Of a stretch of 64,000 nucleotides of DNA, positions 2,166 to 26,052 are shown in pieces; positions within the stretch are counted from its first letter, which is position 1, and every line of letters starts with the position of its first letter. A program made the position numbers and the translations under genes. This DNA is from an uncultured Clostridia bacterium (lineage in GTDB: Bacteria; Bacillota; Clostridia; Christensenellales; UBA1242). The stretch lies in assembly GCA_947632645.1 (NCBI GenBank), contig CANRQB010000003.1:10482-74481 (forward strand). The letters run 5' to 3'. The notes below the pieces were generated by a model that had not been told where the DNA came from, searched no databases, and saw only the letters and a program-made list of their open reading frames with translations.

Positions 2166-3482
2166 ATGAAAAAATTTTGGTGCATAATTGCCGCATTTTT
2201 ACTATCAATAATTTGCGTGTTTGCTATGCCCATGCGCGTGCAAAAGGTGTGTGCCAGCCAAGGCGAGCAGTTGCAGTTTTTTTATGCCGACCGCGTGTTT
2301 AGTTATAATTTAGAAAAAAACAAAAAGCAACCGGACAGGTTTGATTTAAACCACATAATAAACAAATATAATCGCTTTGGCACAAAACAACAAAGGCAAA
2401 ATTTGTTAAAAGAAATGCTATCGGCAGGGCTAGATGTGGACGTTGCGCTAAACTATATTTTTCCGCATTTAAGCCATACCGTGGAGGGTATAAAAAACAA
2501 CATATATATTGCGCCAAAAGATGCAACGATAAAAATTAATCCAAATGCGGAAAAGGTGTTTAATATTTTTAGCGAGGTGGTGGGCATAAGTTTAGACGAA
2601 CAAGATTTATACAATCAAATTTGTGCGGCGTATCTAAACGATGGCGAGCTAAATTTTGGCATAAAAACCATTTTAACCATGCCCAAAATTACAAGTGAGG
2701 ATTATAAAAAATTTACGCATTTGCGCGCTGACTTTTCAACCGATTTTTCGTCGTCTAGTGAGGATAGAAAGCACAACATAAAAAACGCAATTAACGCGCT
2801 TAATAAATATACAATTTTGCCAAATCAGGTGTTTTCGTTTAACAAGGTGGTGGGCAGGCGTACGCAAGAAAATGGCTATAGAGAGGCAAAAATTATTATA
2901 AATAACGAGTATGTGGATGGCTTGGGTGGCGGGGTATGCCAGGTTAGCACCACGCTATATAATGCAGCGCTGCTTGCCGGGCTGGATATTGTGGAAGCAA
3001 ACAAGCACAGCAAACAAATAGGGTATGTTAAATATGGGTTTGATGCCATGGTAAATTTTGGCAGCAGCGATTTAAAATTTAAAAACAACACAAACCAACG
3101 CCTAACTATAATTGCCACTGCCAACAACAATAAAGTGCGCATACGAATTTACGGCGAGGATATGGCGGGCAAAAGCTATAAACTTGTAAACGAAATAGTG
3201 TCGGTTACCGAGCCAGAAGAACAGGTTATTATAGATACCACTGGGGAGTATGCAGATAAGGTGTTTTACGAGGACGAAAGTTATTATATAAAAAAGGCCA
3301 TCCGCGGCATGGAGGTAAAAAGTTACCGCCAATGCTATTTGGATGGCCAGTTGGTAGAAACCAAACTTATAAGATACGATAAATTTAAGGTGCAAAATTC
3401 AATTAAAGTGTGTGGTGCGCATAAGCGTCAAACACAAAATTTTATTCCGCCAGTTGCGAAATTGGAAAAATTTTATCCTTAA
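2166..3482 (+). CDS. VanW-family protein with N-terminal signal/anchor
   Basis: Hydrophobic N-terminus KKFWCIIAAFLLSIICVFA. VanW-domain signature GGGVCQVSTTLYNAALLAGL. Confidence 0.85.
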   Translation: MKKFWCIIAAFLLSIICVFAMPMRVQKVCASQGEQLQFFYADRVFSYNLEKNKKQPDRFDLNHIINKYNRFGTKQQRQNLLKEMLSAGLDVDVALNYIFPHLSHTVEGIKNNIYIAPKDATIKINPNAEKVFNIFSEVVGISLDEQDLYNQICAAYLNDGELNFGIKTILTMPKITSEDYKKFTHLRADFSTDFSSSSEDRKHNIKNAINALNKYTILPNQVFSFNKVVGRRTQENGYREAKIIINNEYVDGLGGGVCQVSTTLYNAALLAGLDIVEANKHSKQIGYVKYGFDAMVNFGSSDLKFKNNTNQRLTIIATANNNKVRIRIYGEDMAGKSYKLVNEIVSVTEPEEQVIIDTTGEYADKVFYEDESYYIKKAIRGMEVKSYRQCYLDGQLVETKLIRYDKFKVQNSIKVCGAHKRQTQNFIPPVAKLEKFYP

Positions 3483-6012
3483 ATTTAGATAGATTTGTAA
3501 CTGCTTTATAAGCTTCTAAAGCGTTGTCAGGCACATAAATTTTAAAGTCAGTTTGCAAATAGTTGCTGTGCAAGGTGTTGGCTTGTATAGCTGGTGGTTT
3601 TTCGCATTTAAAATATATGTATTTACGCTGTGTTTTATCTAGCGTATCCGAAGTTGTTCCGCCAAAGGCATTGGCTGCTAGTATCAAACAACTTTTAGGT
3701 ATTTCCACATAAGGGCTGTCACCATGACTATTAAATTGTGTACTTAATAGGGTTACCCCCTCTGGGATAATTATTGGCTTTTTAAATGATATATACTCTA
3801 CAAATCTTTCACAATATTGCGTAAGTTTGCATGCAGTAAAATCCACCTCTTCTAGTGTGCAATATGTTGTGTTAGAAAAACAGCCCGAAGCTATATAGTT
3901 TAGCGATGCGGGCAAAACTAGGCGAGTGCTGTATTTGCAGCACTCGGAAAAGCTCATGGTGTTGCAACGCTCTAGTGTGTTGGGCAGCTGTTCTAGTGGC
4001 ACACCCTTGCAGTTTTTAAAGCCACACTCTTGCACCACCTTTAAATTTTTAAGATCGCAAAAATTTGTTATAGTAATTGGCAAATCGCTGTTGGTGCAAT
4101 AAAAGGCATAGGTGTCTACAGTATCGGTGTTTGGGCTTAAGGTTATGTCAAACGAACATCCCTTGTTGTAAAACGAATATCTGCCTACAGTGGTGCACTC
4201 GTCTGGATATGTGTACGATATAGGCAACGAAGTGTCTATCAATTGTGGGCAGGTTAATGCGCGCAAAACGGTTGTGTCTTGTGCCGAGCCGCCCGCCTCT
4301 AGCTCGCCAGAGGTTAGCACGCCATTAGAGTTATAAAACATCTTTCCAAGCAAAACATCTTTTTCGGATGCAGTTGTAAGCGAAAAGTCAGTTTCGGTAT
4401 GCGTGCCTGTTTTAATAATTTTGTCGCCAGCAAAAAAGGTTTTACCCAACACAACATCCTCTTCGGTCGCCGTGGCTACAGATAGGTCGGTTTCTACATA
4501 TGTGCCAGTTTTAAGCTCGTTATTTTGGCTATAAAATTTTTTGCCATACATAACATCCTGAGCTTCTGCATCTGCCAAACCAAAATCGGTATCCACATGC
4601 GTGCCCGTTTTAAGTTGATTGTTGCTTGCATAAAAGGTTTTGCCAGCTACAACATCTTTTTCATCCGCGTTGGCAAGCGTAAAGTCAACATCCTCGTGCG
4701 TGCCTGTTTTAAGTGTGCTATCTTTTGCATAAAAGGTTTTACCTTTAACCACATCCTCGCTAGTTGCGTCGGCAAGGCTAAAATCGGTGTCCACATGTGT
4801 GCCAGTTTTTATCTGCTTATCCTTTGCAAAAAAAGTTTTTCCAACTACAACATCTTCTTCGGTTGCGGTTGCGGCATCCAGTTCGGCATCGGTATGCGTG
4901 CCCACTTTAAGTTCGTTATTTTGGCTGTAGAATTTTTTACCTTCTACCACATCCTCACTAGTTGCATCGGCAAGTGTAAAATCGGTATCTACATGTGTGC
5001 CCACTTTAAGCTCATTGTTTTGGCTGTAGAACTTTTTGCCAGCAACAACGTCCTCTTCATTGGCATCGGCAAGTGTAAAGTCAGTGTCTACATGTGTACC
5101 TGTTTTAATTTCTTTATCCCCAGCAAAAAAGGTTTTTCCAACTACAACATCCTCTTCGGTTGCGGTTGCAATATCTAACTCGGCATCGGTATGAGTTCCA
5201 ATTTTAAGTTGGCTATCGCTTGCATAAAAGGTTTTGCCAGCTACAACGTCTTCTTCGGTGGCATCTGCCAAACTAAAATCGGTGTCCTCGTGGGTGCCTG
5301 TGCGTTTAACGTGATCGCCGCCATAAAAGGTTTTGCCTTTAACTACATCTTGTTCGGTGGCGGTGCCAGAAAAATCTGGTTTAACATATTTGCCAGTTTT
5401 AATAAGATGATCGCCAGCATAAAAGGTTTTGCCAAAAGCAACATCCATTTCAACCGCATCAGCGTTTTTAAAAACTGGCTTTACATAGCTGCCAGTTTTA
5501 AGTTTATCGTCGCCCGCATAATAGGTTACTCCAAACGCTACGTCGTCAGCTGTGGCGGTGGCGGCGGCGTAATCTGGATCGGTATGCGTGCCTGTTTTAA
5601 TTTCTATATTGCCTGCAAAAAATGTTTTGCCTGCTTTAACATCTTCTGGTGATGCTGTGGCAGCGGGAAGGTCGGCATCCTTATGGCTGCCTGTTACAAA
5701 ATTGCCAAATTTATCGTAAAAGGTTTTATTAAACTTTACGTCATCGGCTGTGGCGGAAACATTACTGTAATCAACATCCTCGTGTGTGCCAACCTTAAGT
5801 GTTTCGTCCTGACTATAAAAGGTTTTGCCCATTTTAACATCTTCTGGCATAGCGGTGGCGTTTGTTAAATTTGCATGAGTTATGGTTTTTATGCCTGCGG
5901 TAATTTCGCTTGGGCTGGGGTTGGTGTAGGTGGTAGAAACTTTTCCACCCTTATCTTCTATTGCTTTTTTCTGGGCGATAAGTTCGTGTTTTAAGCGTTC
6001 CAAACTATCCAT
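3442..6012 (-). CDS. Repeat protein: coiled N-terminus, 16 x 33-aa GKTFY repeats, C-terminal BspA-type (Cys-rich) leucine-rich repeats; no signal peptide
   Basis: 856-aa ORF. The repeat consensus is xADAxEEDVVxGKTFYxxxxxLKTGTHxDTDF. The C-terminal region has FxxCxxL-type LRR units (YAFYCTNSDLPITITNFCDLKNLKVVQECGFKNCKGV..., ASGCFSNTTYCTLEEVDF). The ATG overlaps the upstream micro-ORF stop. Confidence 0.8.
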   Translation of the reverse strand: MDSLERLKHELIAQKKAIEDKGGKVSTTYTNPSPSEITAGIKTITHANLTNATAMPEDVKMGKTFYSQDETLKVGTHEDVDYSNVSATADDVKFNKTFYDKFGNFVTGSHKDADLPAATASPEDVKAGKTFFAGNIEIKTGTHTDPDYAAATATADDVAFGVTYYAGDDKLKTGSYVKPVFKNADAVEMDVAFGKTFYAGDHLIKTGKYVKPDFSGTATEQDVVKGKTFYGGDHVKRTGTHEDTDFSLADATEEDVVAGKTFYASDSQLKIGTHTDAELDIATATEEDVVVGKTFFAGDKEIKTGTHVDTDFTLADANEEDVVAGKKFYSQNNELKVGTHVDTDFTLADATSEDVVEGKKFYSQNNELKVGTHTDAELDAATATEEDVVVGKTFFAKDKQIKTGTHVDTDFSLADATSEDVVKGKTFYAKDSTLKTGTHEDVDFTLANADEKDVVAGKTFYASNNQLKTGTHVDTDFGLADAEAQDVMYGKKFYSQNNELKTGTYVETDLSVATATEEDVVLGKTFFAGDKIIKTGTHTETDFSLTTASEKDVLLGKMFYNSNGVLTSGELEAGGSAQDTTVLRALTCPQLIDTSLPISYTYPDECTTVGRYSFYNKGCSFDITLSPNTDTVDTYAFYCTNSDLPITITNFCDLKNLKVVQECGFKNCKGVPLEQLPNTLERCNTMSFSECCKYSTRLVLPASLNYIASGCFSNTTYCTLEEVDFTACKLTQYCERFVEYISFKKPIIIPEGVTLLSTQFNSHGDSPYVEIPKSCLILAANAFGGTTSDTLDKTQRKYIYFKCEKPPAIQANTLHSNYLQTDFKIYVPDNALEAYKAVTNLSKFKDKIFPISQLAE
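4282..5862 (-). repeat. 16 tandem 99-bp (33-aa) coding repeats
   Basis: Counted from the translation (aa 51-577). The repeats are also recognisable at nucleotide level through shared runs such as gtgcccactttaag, ttttggctgtagaa and gcatcggcaagtgtaaa. Confidence 0.9.
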
Positions 6013-22180: not shown

Positions 22181-23926
22181 ATGGCACACTTAGGATTTAA
22201 AAAAGCACTTGGTAAACTTTTGCCTTATGTAAAACCACATAAGCGGGTGTTTTTCTTTTCTATATTTTTTGAAATTCTCTCCATTGTGCTAAACATGTGC
22301 GTGCCAATAATCACCGGCTATGCAATCGATTGCATGGTGGGCGCGCATAATGTGAATTTCCACCTGCTGTTTATATATATCGGCATAATTGGTGTGTTGG
22401 TGGCATTTGGTGTGCTGTGTGACTGGCTGGGCAATTTCAACATGGAGATATTATCTTACCGAACTGCACAGAGTTTACGCGTTTCAATTTATAAGAAACT
22501 TAACAACATGCCAATAAAATTTGTGGATAACAACTCGCATGGCGATGTTATGAACACCATGATTGCCGATGTGGAAAACATAACCGATGGCTTCCTAGAA
22601 GGGTTTAAGGCGATTGTGTGCGGCATTTTTCAAATTGTGGTTGTGGGTGTAATGATGTTTATACTAAATGTTCCTCTTGCAATAATCGTGGTGGTGTTTG
22701 CGCCAATTTCGCTGTTGTGCGCAATATTAATTACCCGCCGCAGCAAAGCGCTGTATCGCCAAAAGGTTAATTTCCAGGGCGAACTAAGTGGCTACGCGGA
22801 AGAGATGCTAACTAACATGAAAATAATTAAGGCCTTTTGTAACGAGCGCAGCACTGTTACAGAGTTTGCAAAGTTGAATAAGGATTTGGGCACGTCAAGC
22901 GAAAAATCGCGCTTTTATGCTTCGATAGCCAACCCAACCGCGCGCTTTATAAACAAACTTATCAACGCTATGATTGCAGTGGTGGGCGCGTTTATGGCAA
23001 TAGCGGGCAAAATAAAAATAGGCCGCATATCATCATTTTTAAGCTATAGTTCCAATTTCACCAGCCCAATAAACGATATAACCGACATCTTTGCCGACCT
23101 AAATGTTGCTGTGGCAAGCGCCAATCGCGTGTTCAATTTGCTGGATGAAGAAAACTTGTCGTCCGATAGAAATCTACCCGAACTTAAAACCTGCAACGGC
23201 GAAGTCAGTTTAAAAAATGTAGAGTTCAGCTACGAAAAATCATTTAAATTAATAACCAATTTAAATTTGGATGTTAAGGCGGGCCAGCGCATAGCAATCG
23301 TTGGGCCAACCGGCTGCGGCAAAAGTACAATTATAAACCTGCTTATGCGCTTTTACGATGTGGATGCGGGCACAATTAAGGTTAGCGGCAAGGATATAAG
23401 AAAGGTTAAGCGCAATTCGTTCAGGCGATTCTACGGCATGGTGCTGCAAGAGAGTTGGTTGTATAACGCCAGCGTAAAGGATAATGTTGCATACGGCAAA
23501 CCAAACGCCACCATGGACGAAATTGTAACCGCTTGCAAACTTGCAAACGCACACACCTTTATTAAAAAATTGCCAAACGGATACGACACAATTATATCTG
23601 AACGTGCGGACAACATAAGCGCCGGGCAAAAGCAACTTTTATGTATTGCACGTGTTATGCTTGTTCATCCGCCAATGCTTATTTTGGACGAAGCCACCAG
23701 CAATATCGATACGCGCACCGAACAAAAGATCCAAGAGAGTTTGGATACAATGATGAAAGGGCGCACCTGCTTTATTGTTGCCCACCGTCTATCCACAATT
23801 GTTAACGCGGACACCATTTTGGTTATGAACAACGGGCATATTATCGAGCAAGGCAAACATGCCGAGCTGCTAGCTAAAAAAGGATTTTATTATAATTTAT
23901 TTAATAGTCAATTTTCGCAAAACTAA
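22181..23926 (+). CDS. ABC exporter, fused permease/ATPase (half transporter 2)
   Basis: Walker A GPTGCGKST, signature ISAGQKQLLCIARV, Walker B ILDEATSNID, H-loop VAHRLST. Confidence 0.85.
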   Translation: MAHLGFKKALGKLLPYVKPHKRVFFFSIFFEILSIVLNMCVPIITGYAIDCMVGAHNVNFHLLFIYIGIIGVLVAFGVLCDWLGNFNMEILSYRTAQSLRVSIYKKLNNMPIKFVDNNSHGDVMNTMIADVENITDGFLEGFKAIVCGIFQIVVVGVMMFILNVPLAIIVVVFAPISLLCAILITRRSKALYRQKVNFQGELSGYAEEMLTNMKIIKAFCNERSTVTEFAKLNKDLGTSSEKSRFYASIANPTARFINKLINAMIAVVGAFMAIAGKIKIGRISSFLSYSSNFTSPINDITDIFADLNVAVASANRVFNLLDEENLSSDRNLPELKTCNGEVSLKNVEFSYEKSFKLITNLNLDVKAGQRIAIVGPTGCGKSTIINLLMRFYDVDAGTIKVSGKDIRKVKRNSFRRFYGMVLQESWLYNASVKDNVAYGKPNATMDEIVTACKLANAHTFIKKLPNGYDTIISERADNISAGQKQLLCIARVMLVHPPMLILDEATSNIDTRTEQKIQESLDTMMKGRTCFIVAHRLSTIVNADTILVMNNGHIIEQGKHAELLAKKGFYYNLFNSQFSQN

Positions 23927-23927
23927 G

Positions 23928-24190
23928 GCATAAACTGCACTTTTGCTAGTTTGCCAATAAAATTTGCAAACGTAAGCTTGAAGTTTGTTTATGCCCTTGC
24001 TATTAAGGGACACCCGCTGGTTTCCCTTAATAAATCCTTTCCTGAAATGTGATTTCCTACGCAAGGGAACTGCAGCGGGGAAATTGTTAAATTATGCTTT
24101 TCTACGATTGGGCTGGGGGCTTGCGCGCAAACGTAGTTTGCGCTGGGCGGCAATTTGCCGCCCTCGCAGGTAAACCTGCGGCAAGCCCCC
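23928..24190. ncRNA. GC-rich multi-helix structured element (orphan ncRNA or 3'-UTR structure candidate)
   Basis: Hand-found pairings. 23928-35 pairs with 23987-94. 23949-54 pairs with 23966-71. 23994-24000 pairs with 24061-67. 24001-10 pairs with 24023-32, and its loop CCCGCTG (24013-19) is complementary to CAGCGGG (24073-79). A 76-nt four-way junction spans 24115-24190, closed by GGGGGCTTGC/GCAAGCCCCC with three internal hairpins. I count 54/80 G+C over 24111-24190. Confidence 0.35.
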
Positions 24191-24254
24191 GTGTTTGGCT
24201 TGGCTATTTTTTTATTTGTTTTTTACTAGATTGGTTTTTTATTATTAATATTTT

Positions 24255-25331
24255 TTACTTATTTAATTGTTCTATAAAAAATTCGCGGTTTTGCTTTAGG
24301 CGTGGTTCGCTCGATTTTGCTATTGCTAAATCCACATAGGTTAGCGCGACTCGGTAGTTTTTCAGTTCGGCAAAACAAACAGATAGTATGTCATACGGCA
24401 GGCTGCCCCAACACTCGGGCGCGGATATATAGTTTAGGTTGCGCGTGGTTATTTTTAGCATTTCGGTTAGCGCAACCGCTGCTTGTAAATATTTTTTGTG
24501 ATTATAAAAATAAATGCCTAATTCAAAATATGGCTCGCGCAAATAGGGCGCTTCCAAAATGGCTTTTAGCAAAAATTCTTTTTGTTTTTTTGTGTTTTTT
24601 AGCTCACCATAACAGCGCGCAATAAATCTGAGACTCGCGCATCTCTCGTCCGCCCAAGTTGCAGTTTTTAGCCCTAGGTGGCGCTTTAGTTCGCCAATTG
24701 CTTTTTCGTACTGCCCATTAAACATATACTCTCTGCCCAAATAGTGCGCATTGCGGTCGTCCTCGGGGCACTCGCTAACCGAAAGTTCTAATAGCGGCAA
24801 ATAATTAGAACGCGATTTATTTATGTCTGCCATGTGGTTTAGTTGCACATCAGTTAAATCTATAGTCTCATACTCGCCATTAAAAGTGGGTGTCAACACC
24901 TCGTGCACGGGATGAGTCCACACAAACTTTTTGTTGGCGTGTATTTTGTCCGCCATAAACACCACGCCCTCGCTGCCGTCTGGGTTAAAATTCCAGGTGT
25001 ATCTATACCGTGCGCGCATGGTAGATGGCTTCCACTGTTGGCGTATTTTTTCTGCCCAGCCTGGTGCAAAAAATTCGTCCAAATCCACGCACACGCAAAC
25101 ATCGGCATCGTCTTGGATAAGGGTTAAACTATCGTTTCGTGCCACGTCGAATCTAAAAAAATCGTACCTCTTTTGTGCGGTTATTATGTTTAGTTTTTTA
25201 AGCTCCTCATAAGTGCCGTCTGTGCTGCCAGTATCTAGCACGCAAACATAGTCAGCCTCGCTAACCGAATTATACCAGCGGTGCACAAATTTAATTTCAT
25301 TTTTGCAAATGGCATACACACAAATTTTCAT
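24255..25331 (-). CDS. Family-2-like glycosyltransferase with C-terminal TPR-like repeats
   Basis: MKICVYAICKNEIKFVHRWYNSVSEADYVCVLDTGSTDGT...DLDEF shows the GT-A fold signature and DxD-like motif. The C-terminus is helical-repeat rich. The track N-terminal extension (to 25544) is low-complexity and overlaps the divergent gene. Confidence 0.65.
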   Translation of the reverse strand: MKICVYAICKNEIKFVHRWYNSVSEADYVCVLDTGSTDGTYEELKKLNIITAQKRYDFFRFDVARNDSLTLIQDDADVCVCVDLDEFFAPGWAEKIRQQWKPSTMRARYRYTWNFNPDGSEGVVFMADKIHANKKFVWTHPVHEVLTPTFNGEYETIDLTDVQLNHMADINKSRSNYLPLLELSVSECPEDDRNAHYLGREYMFNGQYEKAIGELKRHLGLKTATWADERCASLRFIARCYGELKNTKKQKEFLLKAILEAPYLREPYFELGIYFYNHKKYLQAAVALTEMLKITTRNLNYISAPECWGSLPYDILSVCFAELKNYRVALTYVDLAIAKSSEPRLKQNREFFIEQLNK

Positions 25332-25404
25332 ATTAATACATATTAAAATTGCAATTTTGTTGTGCTTAATTGCATTTTGGCTGCGGATGTGATATAATAA
25401 AATT

Positions 25405-26052
25405 ATGGTAAAACTAACAGAGCAACAAAAAGAAAAATTGATTGACGATATGCTAGATTTTTTTAGCAAAGAAATGGGCATTTCGCTTAGAGATATAGGG
25501 GATAAGCGCGGTGCACTAAACACACTTATGGCAATAAACACCAACTTTCCGCTTGGCGAATATTTTTACGGATTGCAAGATAAACTTTTAAGCGACGAAG
25601 CATCTTCTAACGCGGTTAGCACTCGTTTTGACGGCGCAACAAAAAAACTAAATTTTTGTTATATAAAAGCCGACATGCTTGTATATTTTGGCGAAAAACT
25701 TTTGCATGTGGATGCAAAAAAATGTGTTGAAAACGATATAATTATTTCCGCTGGCGTGCAGGTTAACGAGGATTTTTATAACCAACTTAAGCAAACTGGG
25801 TTTATAGAAAGTTATACTAAGCCATACATAACCGCGGGCTACAATTTAAATTGCTACTATATTGCAAAAATTTTACTTAATGCGCCCGAACAACTAAATT
25901 TATGCGCGGCCGAAATTTTTAAGTTTGCCGAAAAAAATAAACTAAAAAATATTGCCATTTATGTTGGCAATAATGGTGATATTAAGCCAGTTTTTGAAAA
26001 ACTATCCGAGCGATATAAGCAGATAAAACTGGTGTATGTTACAGATATTTAA
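25405..26052 (+). CDS. Macrodomain-like protein (protein-ADP-ribose hydrolase family layout) with degenerate ligand-binding motifs
   Basis: The N-terminal helical region LIDDMLDFFSKE...KRGALNTLMAINTNFPLGEYFYGLQDKLLSDE, ISAGVQV and ITAGYNLNCYYIAKILLNAP align with Firmicutes SauMacro-type proteins. The NAAN, Cys/His zinc-site and G-x-[FY]-G segments are absent. Confidence 0.5.
   Translation: MVKLTEQQKEKLIDDMLDFFSKEMGISLRDIGDKRGALNTLMAINTNFPLGEYFYGLQDKLLSDEASSNAVSTRFDGATKKLNFCYIKADMLVYFGEKLLHVDAKKCVENDIIISAGVQVNEDFYNQLKQTGFIESYTKPYITAGYNLNCYYIAKILLNAPEQLNLCAAEIFKFAEKNKLKNIAIYVGNNGDIKPVFEKLSERYKQIKLVYVTDI

Follow-up and report, generated by a model that had tools for sequence, protein, structure and literature searches.

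A GC-rich intergenic island in an uncultured Clostridia bacterium is probably a composite of small hairpin-forming interspersed repeats

The GC-rich island that follows an ABC exporter gene in an uncultured Clostridia bacterium of the lineage UBA1242 is probably a juxtaposition of three modules, termed A, B and C, of lineage-specific, small, hairpin-forming interspersed repeats, together making up a composite mosaic of the BOX/BIME type. The modules are present in multiple copies, are strictly intergenic, are recombined into different orders and nested in loops, and retain their hairpins while the sequence drifts. The first-pass annotation had read the island as one structured RNA of two domains. 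This reading as a structured-RNA gene fails, and the island represents one or more new families within an already known kind of element and not a new riboswitch or sRNA, which removes a false lead. A sub-1-Mb, probably obligately partner-dependent lineage of gut Clostridia (UBA1242; PMC12306168) is found to harbor active-looking mosaic hairpin repeats of at least five families, amounting to approximately 85 modules and 1% of the genome.

The genome assembly (G000), a MAG of Candidatus Onthoplasma/UBA1242-like gut Clostridia, comprises 885 kb in 28 contigs, is 88.5% complete and has a G+C content of 37.5%. The window, which is the whole 64,000-nt stretch of DNA that was analysed, is located on contig C3. 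The features of the locus, by window position, are as follows:

22181..23926, forward strand: ABC exporter gene, 581 aa (Pfam ABC_membrane and ABC_tran)
23927..23995, forward strand: module A, a 69-nt imperfect rod hairpin, by its approximately 20 copies and the folded copies
23996..24113, forward strand: module B, approximately 118 nt, with approximately 25 copies in this genome
24073..24079, forward strand: CAGCGGG, the stretch suggested to form a pseudoknot with the H1 loop of module B, exact in the window copy and not conserved
24115..24190, no strand assigned: module C, a 76-nt GC-rich four-way junction, closed by a stem of 10 bp (GGGGGCTTGC/GCAAGCCCCC) and bearing three perfect hairpins whose loops are 3-4 nt long
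24191..24254, no strand assigned: AT-rich remainder of the spacer, with no canonical intrinsic terminator on either strand
24255..25544, reverse strand: convergent glycosyltransferase family 2 (GT2) and TPR gene, 429 aa (Pfam)

The stop codon of the ABC exporter gene (TAA, 23924-26) is followed directly by the first base of module A, the junction reading TAA and then GGCATAAAC. The C-terminus of the exporter is untruncated, with orthologues in 60/64 same-genus genomes (~55-72% identity) aligning to residue 579-580 of 581. The spacer between the exporter and the GT2/TPR gene is 328 nt in length, and a terminator scan of this spacer recovered a single weak 5-pair site (24177-24193), with shuffled sequences yielding more. 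A T-run begins 14 nt past the stem of module C, and the feature that defines an intrinsic terminator, a GC-rich stem directly followed by a T-run, is absent from the island, with modules A, B and C all lacking a T-run. Nor was a promoter-like site found facing the island.

The helices that had been proposed by eye are present in the DNA. Exact complementarity was observed for the outer stem GCATAAAC/GTTTATGC (23928-35 with 23987-94), the stem CCCTTGC/GCAAGGG (23994-24000 with 24061-67, in the window copy), the 10-bp hairpin (24001-10 with 24023-32) and the closing stem of the second domain (24115-24 with 24181-90) together with its three inner hairpins, while, in the window copy, CAGCGGG at 24073-79 complements the hairpin loop CCCGCTG. 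The G+C count of 54/80 over 24111-24190 was likewise confirmed and is the highest 80-nt value among the spacers of the contig, the runner-up being 45. The forward strand folds with a minimum free energy of -124.7 kcal/mol, against -91.5 +/- 5.8 for dinucleotide shuffles (z -5.73), and the reverse strand reaches a z of -7.69 against such shuffles. The annotation had furthermore matched the island to no tRNA, tmRNA, SRP, RNase P or 6S RNA and to no riboswitch class, in agreement with the negative results of Rfam 15 and ARAGORN: a cmscan of 23500-24700 with E up to 10 gave STnc361 as the best match (23.8 bits; gathering score: 80), with the others not near threshold, and no tRNA or tmRNA was found in the window by ARAGORN.

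A BLAST search with 23928-24200 against the same 885-kb genome returned 28 matches on 13 contigs. By iterative nhmmer, approximately 20 copies of A, 25 of B and three of C were recovered, and a covariance model raised the number of C copies from three to six. Many dispersed copies, an outcome that the annotation had itself set against its reading, are thus what the search for copies elsewhere in the genome found, and the sequence is a dispersed repeat. All module copies are intergenic and occupy 27/727 spacers. The further copies are located on other contigs, and a repeat search inside the window alone found none. Four contig ends stop inside a copy and, as such, the true copy number is probably higher than counted. 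The module combinations observed are A-B, PTP-B, A(D+E)-B, B(D+E) and A-B-C, where PTP and D+E are two further modules, and C is also found alone. Module B is never alone, being preceded by A in eight loci and by PTP in twelve. The proposed first domain is not a unit and splits into two independent modules, A and B, while the second is a third module, C, which occurs elsewhere with unrelated flanks. What survives of the proposed fold comprises the outer rod of the first domain, the hairpin of 10 bp and the four-way junction in its entirety; compensatory changes maintain all three in other copies, though not as parts of one two-domain RNA.

The rod of module A is closed by the outer stem (GGCATAAAC/GTTTATGCC), continues through the middle stems (ACTTT/GAAGT, GCT/AGC) and is capped by the inner hairpin (GTTTGC..GCAAAC). 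Its length ranges from 67 to 70 nt, and most of the 14 full copies, when folded singly, form the same rod. The inner hairpin is built from three unrelated sequences (AAATTAATTTG/CAAATTAATT, GTTTGCC/GGCAAAC and GTCCGCA/TGCGGAC), and the outer stem shows the compensatory variants GGCGC/GCGCC, GGCAT/ATGCC and GGAGC/GCTCC. The module is bounded by terminal inverted repeats (GGCGCAAAC...GTTTGCGCC), and in seven loci it starts 6 nt or less from a stop codon or tRNA 3′ end. Integron attC core sites follow the R″/R′ consensus RYYYAAC / GTTRRRY and are accompanied by an IntI integrase. A likeness of module A to attC was considered, but in a by-eye comparison its ends (CGCAAAC / GTTTGCG) do not appear to fit this consensus.

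Module B consists of the hairpin H1 (24001-24010 with 24023-24032, loop CACCCGCTGGTT), a conserved tail (AATCCTTTCCTGAA) and the 3′ end TCTACGATTGGGC, with a weak hairpin (TTTCCT/AGGGAA; 24053-58 with 24064-69) between; no terminal inverted repeats are found in B. In an alignment of 17 full B copies (mean column identity: 81%), H1 is 93.5% paired and is the sole solid helix of the module; at two of its pairs, both bases have changed, in six copies for each pair. Striking conservation is also seen in two unpaired parts, the loop (ACACC..CTGGTTT) and the tail (CTTCTTTTCCTGAA). The H-type pseudoknot between the H1 loop and CAGCGGG is not conserved: 74.8% of cells are paired, with the central pairs 20-84 and 21-83 unpaired in 10 and 8 of the 17 copies, respectively, while the alternative pairing TTCCTG/CGGGGA reaches 83%. 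Similarly, only 61% of cells are paired for the CCCTTGC/GCAAGGG stem, counted over the five of its seven pairs that lie in the alignment. Both the pseudoknot and this stem are features of the window copy only. A conserved small ORF in B was discarded as a candidate; some subtypes carry ATGAAGGA..., the window copy has ATT, and 1-nt indels occur between copies.

The edges of module C are sharp, GGGGGCTTGC...GCAAGCCCCC constituting 10-bp terminal inverted repeats, and the flanking sequences are unrelated between copies. Aside from the six copies in this genome, four are found in G024 and three in G013, these being two of the 63 other genus genomes, while none were found in 250 other genomes of the order. 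When folded independently, all 13 copies form a closing stem and three perfect hairpins, with the hairpin sequences differing between subfamilies. A hand-made structural alignment of three copies, by a method biased towards pairing, has 97/97 cells paired and five pairs changed on both sides. Two near-identical copies in the same orientation, at C4:32168-32248 and C4:34305-34386 of G000, bracket a pair of genes whose products, an HExxH protein of 557 aa and a protein of 106 aa, have no Pfam family; among the 64 genus genomes this gene pair is restricted to G000 and G013. The C copies were considered as the ends of a mobile two-gene cassette. This was rejected, as the same pair is present in G013 in the same synteny and without C.

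The D+E module is approximately 105 nt in length, with approximately 15 copies in this genome. It is nested within A at C1:113187 and C10:872 and, at C16:17064 and C10:1006, within the loop of hairpin H1 in B, and its nested arrangements yield closing-stem-plus-three-hairpin shapes which resemble C. The PTP module (~70 nt; ~19 copies), exemplified by C2:38877-38945, C16:16795-16864, C18:15910-15980 and C1:59962-60030, has the layout GCGGGC-x-GCCC, an A-run/hairpin/T-run terminator and GGGC-x-GCCCGC, with covarying outer arms. PTP, located elsewhere in the genome, thus carries the stem and T-run of an intrinsic terminator. Its outer inverted repeat, however, extends beyond the terminator T-run, which argues that pairing of these arms would matter in DNA and not in RNA. 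B always follows PTP, and PTP adjoins the ends of tRNA, tmRNA and RNase P RNA genes.

Spacers flanking tRNA or tmRNA genes make up 10/27 of the host spacers, compared with 35/727 overall (Fisher p 8e-8). PTP adjoins the 3′ ends of tRNA-Asn, tRNA-Arg, two tRNA-Leu, tRNA-Ser and the RNase P RNA (identified by Rfam at 186 bits), as well as one CDS stop, while an inverted PTP adjoins two tRNA-Gln genes and the tmRNA gene at their 5′ ends. Convergent spacers harbor 6/18 A and 8/21 B copies, against 18% of all spacers. The gene 5′ of B is co-oriented in 16/21 cases and, between tandem genes, eight B copies are sense and one is antisense. The sense strand of the whole B module also folds better in 15/17 copies. 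The individual hairpins, by contrast, favor neither strand (A: 6 to 8; H1: 9 to 6; PTP: 5 to 8), and copies are also found antisense, in divergent spacers, truncated and nested within one another. The absence of strand asymmetry, together with the outer repeat of PTP beyond the T-run, favors structure-dependent, non-autonomous DNA repeats.

Several tRNA fragments at contig ends adjoin repeat modules, so that breaks in the assembly at tRNA loci are probably due to the repeats; ARAGORN identified only 23 tRNA genes and the tmRNA in the whole 88.5%-complete assembly. At C16:14295-14366 of G000, a tRNA-like 3′ end (GGTTCAAGTCC T-arm, ...CCGCACCA) lies behind a promoter-like site (TTGACA/TATAAAAT). 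It is called by neither ARAGORN nor Rfam, and a D+E module starts a few bases past its CCA. For annotation, the repeats accordingly matter as elements that break the assembly at contig ends and lie flush with the 3′ ends of genes, tRNAs and the RNase P RNA, where they may have replaced terminators; the two covariance models allow annotators to mask them.

The annotation had proposed a comparison of homologous spacers, and in these the element is missing. In 17 genomes of the genus, the exporter is followed by the same convergent GT2 gene, across a spacer of 0-259 nt that is usually shorter than 120 nt and AT-rich. None of these 17 orthologous spacers contains module A, B or C, and many carry a simple bidirectional terminator hairpin. 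As the orthologous spacers lack the modules, the island appears to be a lineage-specific gain, located next to a terminator or replacing it. Downstream of the exporter orthologue in G024 and G074, different A-like, D+E-like and GC-rich hairpin modules are located, which suggests that this gene end has been occupied independently in other species. An exact-protein look-up found no conspecific contigs on record.

BLAST searches in 40 relatives were almost empty. The covariance model of B, however, matches 31/63 other genus genomes at 21-42 bits, with several copies in each, and only the H1 core and tail are common to all; half of the genus genomes are without detectable B. In Ca. Onthoplasma faecipullorum, the B core follows an A-like rod whose stem differs in sequence, and this arrangement occurs as two tandem units. 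A degenerate B-core pattern furthermore matched genomes of Candidatus Onthoplasma, which the NCBI taxonomy places in the Christensenellales, and of ‘uncultured Clostridia’, from chicken and rabbit gut. The family UBA1242 has been described as a reduced-genome, probably partner-dependent lineage, and repeats are not mentioned in this description (PMC12306168). Five metagenome contigs also contain the B-core pattern, one of which is binned as Patescibacteria. On this contig (JBAZNF010000002.1; 60,657 bp, GC-rich), the B-core hairpin ATGAAGGGACACC-CTT-GGTTTCCCTTCATTACTTCCTTTCC occurs once, at 3319-3388, just past a gene end and T-run, and may represent horizontal transfer, mis-binning or convergence. 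The pattern had no matches in viral contigs, leaving a phage origin of the modules unsupported.

A second site of comparison is the downstream flank of the RNase P RNA gene. In 26/30 relatives this flank contains the conserved native terminator alone, and as such PTP-B was rejected as a conserved trailer of the RNase P RNA. In the other four (G001, G003, G019 and G010), an A-like or PTP-like rod is located 0-2 nt past the T-run of the native terminator, followed in G001, G003 and G019 by a B-like hairpin. In these flanks, sites of one and the same kind are occupied recurrently and patchily.

We suggest that the modules would have spread selfishly, as non-autonomous DNA units whose hairpins are recognised or selected, probably on single-stranded DNA and by means of a putative enzyme supplied in trans. 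The preferred landing sites would be the extreme 3′ ends of transcription units, namely stop codons, tRNA or RNase P RNA ends and terminator T-runs, as well as the loops of existing copies. At the locus described here, the A-B-C block would have been gained in a short, terminator-bearing spacer directly after the stop codon of the ABC exporter gene, and is now, most likely, transcribed along with it as a 3′ UTR with extensive structure. This UTR may incidentally block read-through or 3′ exonucleases in a convergent gap where no canonical terminator remains.

Evidence for a mobilising enzyme was sought in the same genome and its relatives. Y1_Tnp (PF01797) had no matches in the 88.5%-complete genome, while IS200-like TnpA is present in 8/64 genus genomes, and no similarity to A, B or C was found near the IS200 genes or ends of these eight relatives. 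A Y1/RAYT link was rejected on these two grounds. All eight Y1-bearing relatives have B matches, but they include several of the closest relatives by ABC-exporter identity, so that the association is confounded by phylogeny and was likewise set aside. No long high-identity repeats of the kind expected of IS copies were found in the assembly, and no target-site duplications were seen at the flanks of A and C that were inspected. With respect to MITEs, terminal inverted repeats are present in A, C and PTP (GCGGGC..GCCC...GGGC..GCCCGC), and no target-site duplications or parent IS ends were found. That no transposase is linked to the modules, and that no IS copies or target-site duplications were found, speaks against the reading as mobile repeats.

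By analogy of organisation, the closest known kind of element would be the composite small interspersed repeats, which include BOX of pneumococcus, BIME/REP of enterobacteria and NIME of Neisseria (PMC3049150). The traits that characterize them, i.e. dispersed copies of less than approximately 200 bp, varied combinations, presence or absence and restriction to a lineage, are all observed here. The pneumococcal BOX, RUP and SPRITE repeats have been argued to be parasitic from traits that are also found in the present modules (PMC3049150). BOX in Streptococcus pneumoniae (boxA-boxB-boxC; Croucher et al. 2011, PMC3049150) is likewise a composite intergenic element of three short modules in variable combinations, occurs in tens of copies in a small Firmicute genome with extensive predicted secondary structure, is lineage-restricted with diverged relatives in neighbouring species, is found in excess between convergent genes and has no proven transposase. 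The likeness is one of organisation only, and no homology to boxA, boxB or boxC is claimed. In contrast to BOX, the modules described here have no fixed A...C frame, B is not tandemly amplified, the units lie flush with stop codons and stable-RNA 3′ ends and are nested in loops, and C is a GC-rich four-way junction.

The REP/BIME elements of enterobacteria and pseudomonads are mosaics of palindromic units which are mobilised by RAYT Y1 transposases. Resemblances to these elements include the mosaics of imperfect palindromes with interspersed motifs, conservation at the level of the hairpin, and location at gene 3′ ends and in convergent gaps, often a few nucleotides from the stop codon (from general background and the Background of PMC3049150). 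Unlike in REP/BIME, there is no RAYT or other Y1 transposase in the genome, the units are 64-118 nt in size instead of approximately 35 nt, and a conserved 5′ tetranucleotide of the REP type was not recognised. SPRITE and other terminator-like small repeats or MITEs (RUP, Correia, ERIC and Nezha) are similar in being structured, non-coding and shorter than 200 bp, in their enrichment near CDS 3′ ends with possible co-option as terminators, and in their terminal inverted repeats, which are 9-10 bp in A and C. They differ in that the present modules have no target-site duplication or matching IS ends, A, B and C lack a T-run, and C is GC-rich where MITEs are typically AT-rich. In yeast mitochondrial DNA, the so-called GC clusters are likewise short palindromes of high G+C content, scattered among the AT-rich spacers of a small genome. 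Module C resembles these as GC-rich palindromes in AT-rich spacers, by analogy only, the hosts and sequences being unrelated. The organisational features of composite repeats are therefore all present, while the strict features of MITEs and REPINs (target-site duplication, partner IS and RAYT) are not. The unusual points are the flush 3′-end placement, the loop-in-loop nesting and the GC-rich four-way-junction module; the absence of a Y1 transposase is a further point of note.

The main rival to mobile repeats is domestication of the modules by the host as RNA 3′-end cassettes, in which A-B and PTP-B would be transcribed as trailers of mRNA, tRNA and RNase P RNA and would act as terminators, exonuclease blocks or processing signals, replacing the lost intrinsic terminator at this locus. 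We regard this as unlikely but deserving of serious consideration, and it is compatible with a selfish origin. It would account for units that start 0-6 nt after stop codons, tRNA CCA ends and the RNase P RNA 3′ end, for the classic terminator inside PTP, for the co-oriented 5′ neighbours, sense bias and better-folding sense strand of B, and for a spacer which has no other terminator when many relatives have one. The A-B architecture is furthermore kept across the genus despite sequence turnover and, as this architecture extends across species at ~70% protein identity, it fits host use, together with the 8:1 sense bias of B, equally well as selfish spread. However, the units are missing from the 17 orthologous spacers and from 26/30 RNase P flanks, and B is undetectable in half of the genus genomes. 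Antisense, divergent, truncated and mutually nested copies, hairpins that are indifferent to strand, and modules A, B and C without a T-run of their own all count against it, as does the outer inverted repeat of PTP, which would rarely form in RNA.

More speculatively, A-B, PTP-B and C could together form a hitherto undescribed system of hairpin-targeting elements in the tiny-genome UBA1242/Onthoplasma lineage. Its units would insert with precision at the 3′ ends of transcripts and into loops of existing copies, without a recognisable transposase, and would have been co-opted as modular 3′-end caps that take the place of canonical terminators. On this view, module C would represent a new class of GC-rich four-way-junction repeat kept at the DNA level. 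We consider this combination of proposals doubtful.

For module C, and perhaps the P palindromes, a further alternative is an extruded cruciform or four-way junction that is bound as DNA, and not as RNA, by a recombinase, a junction-binding protein or a nucleoid protein. The hairpins of C are perfect Watson-Crick palindromes, with G-T pairs making up only 4/438, and the covariance model scores both strands alike. Furthermore, C is found in spacers of all three kinds (convergent, divergent and tandem) and in both orientations, and two of its copies bracket the two-gene accessory pair. Nevertheless, no partner protein has been identified, the orthologue of the bracketed pair in G013 has no C copies, and 13 copies in three genomes afford little statistical power, making this alternative very improbable. 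A single stand-alone structured ncRNA gene or cis-regulator of the riboswitch or sRNA type, with two domains and a pseudoknot, is hardly credible despite the very stable predicted fold, the GC-rich island within an AT-rich spacer and the covariation of some helices, being largely refuted by the dozens of dispersed copies of separable modules and contradicted further by the unconserved pseudoknot and inter-module stem, the convergent 3′-3′ spacer, which leaves no downstream gene to regulate, the missing promoter-like site and Rfam match at E up to 10, and the empty homologous spacers.

The composite mosaic of interspersed repeats accordingly remains the preferred reading of the island. A repeat of a different nature is also located in the window, where approximately 15 tandem 99-nt coding repeats (33-residue units; 60-77% identity) are found inside a long ORF on the reverse strand at 4334-5844.
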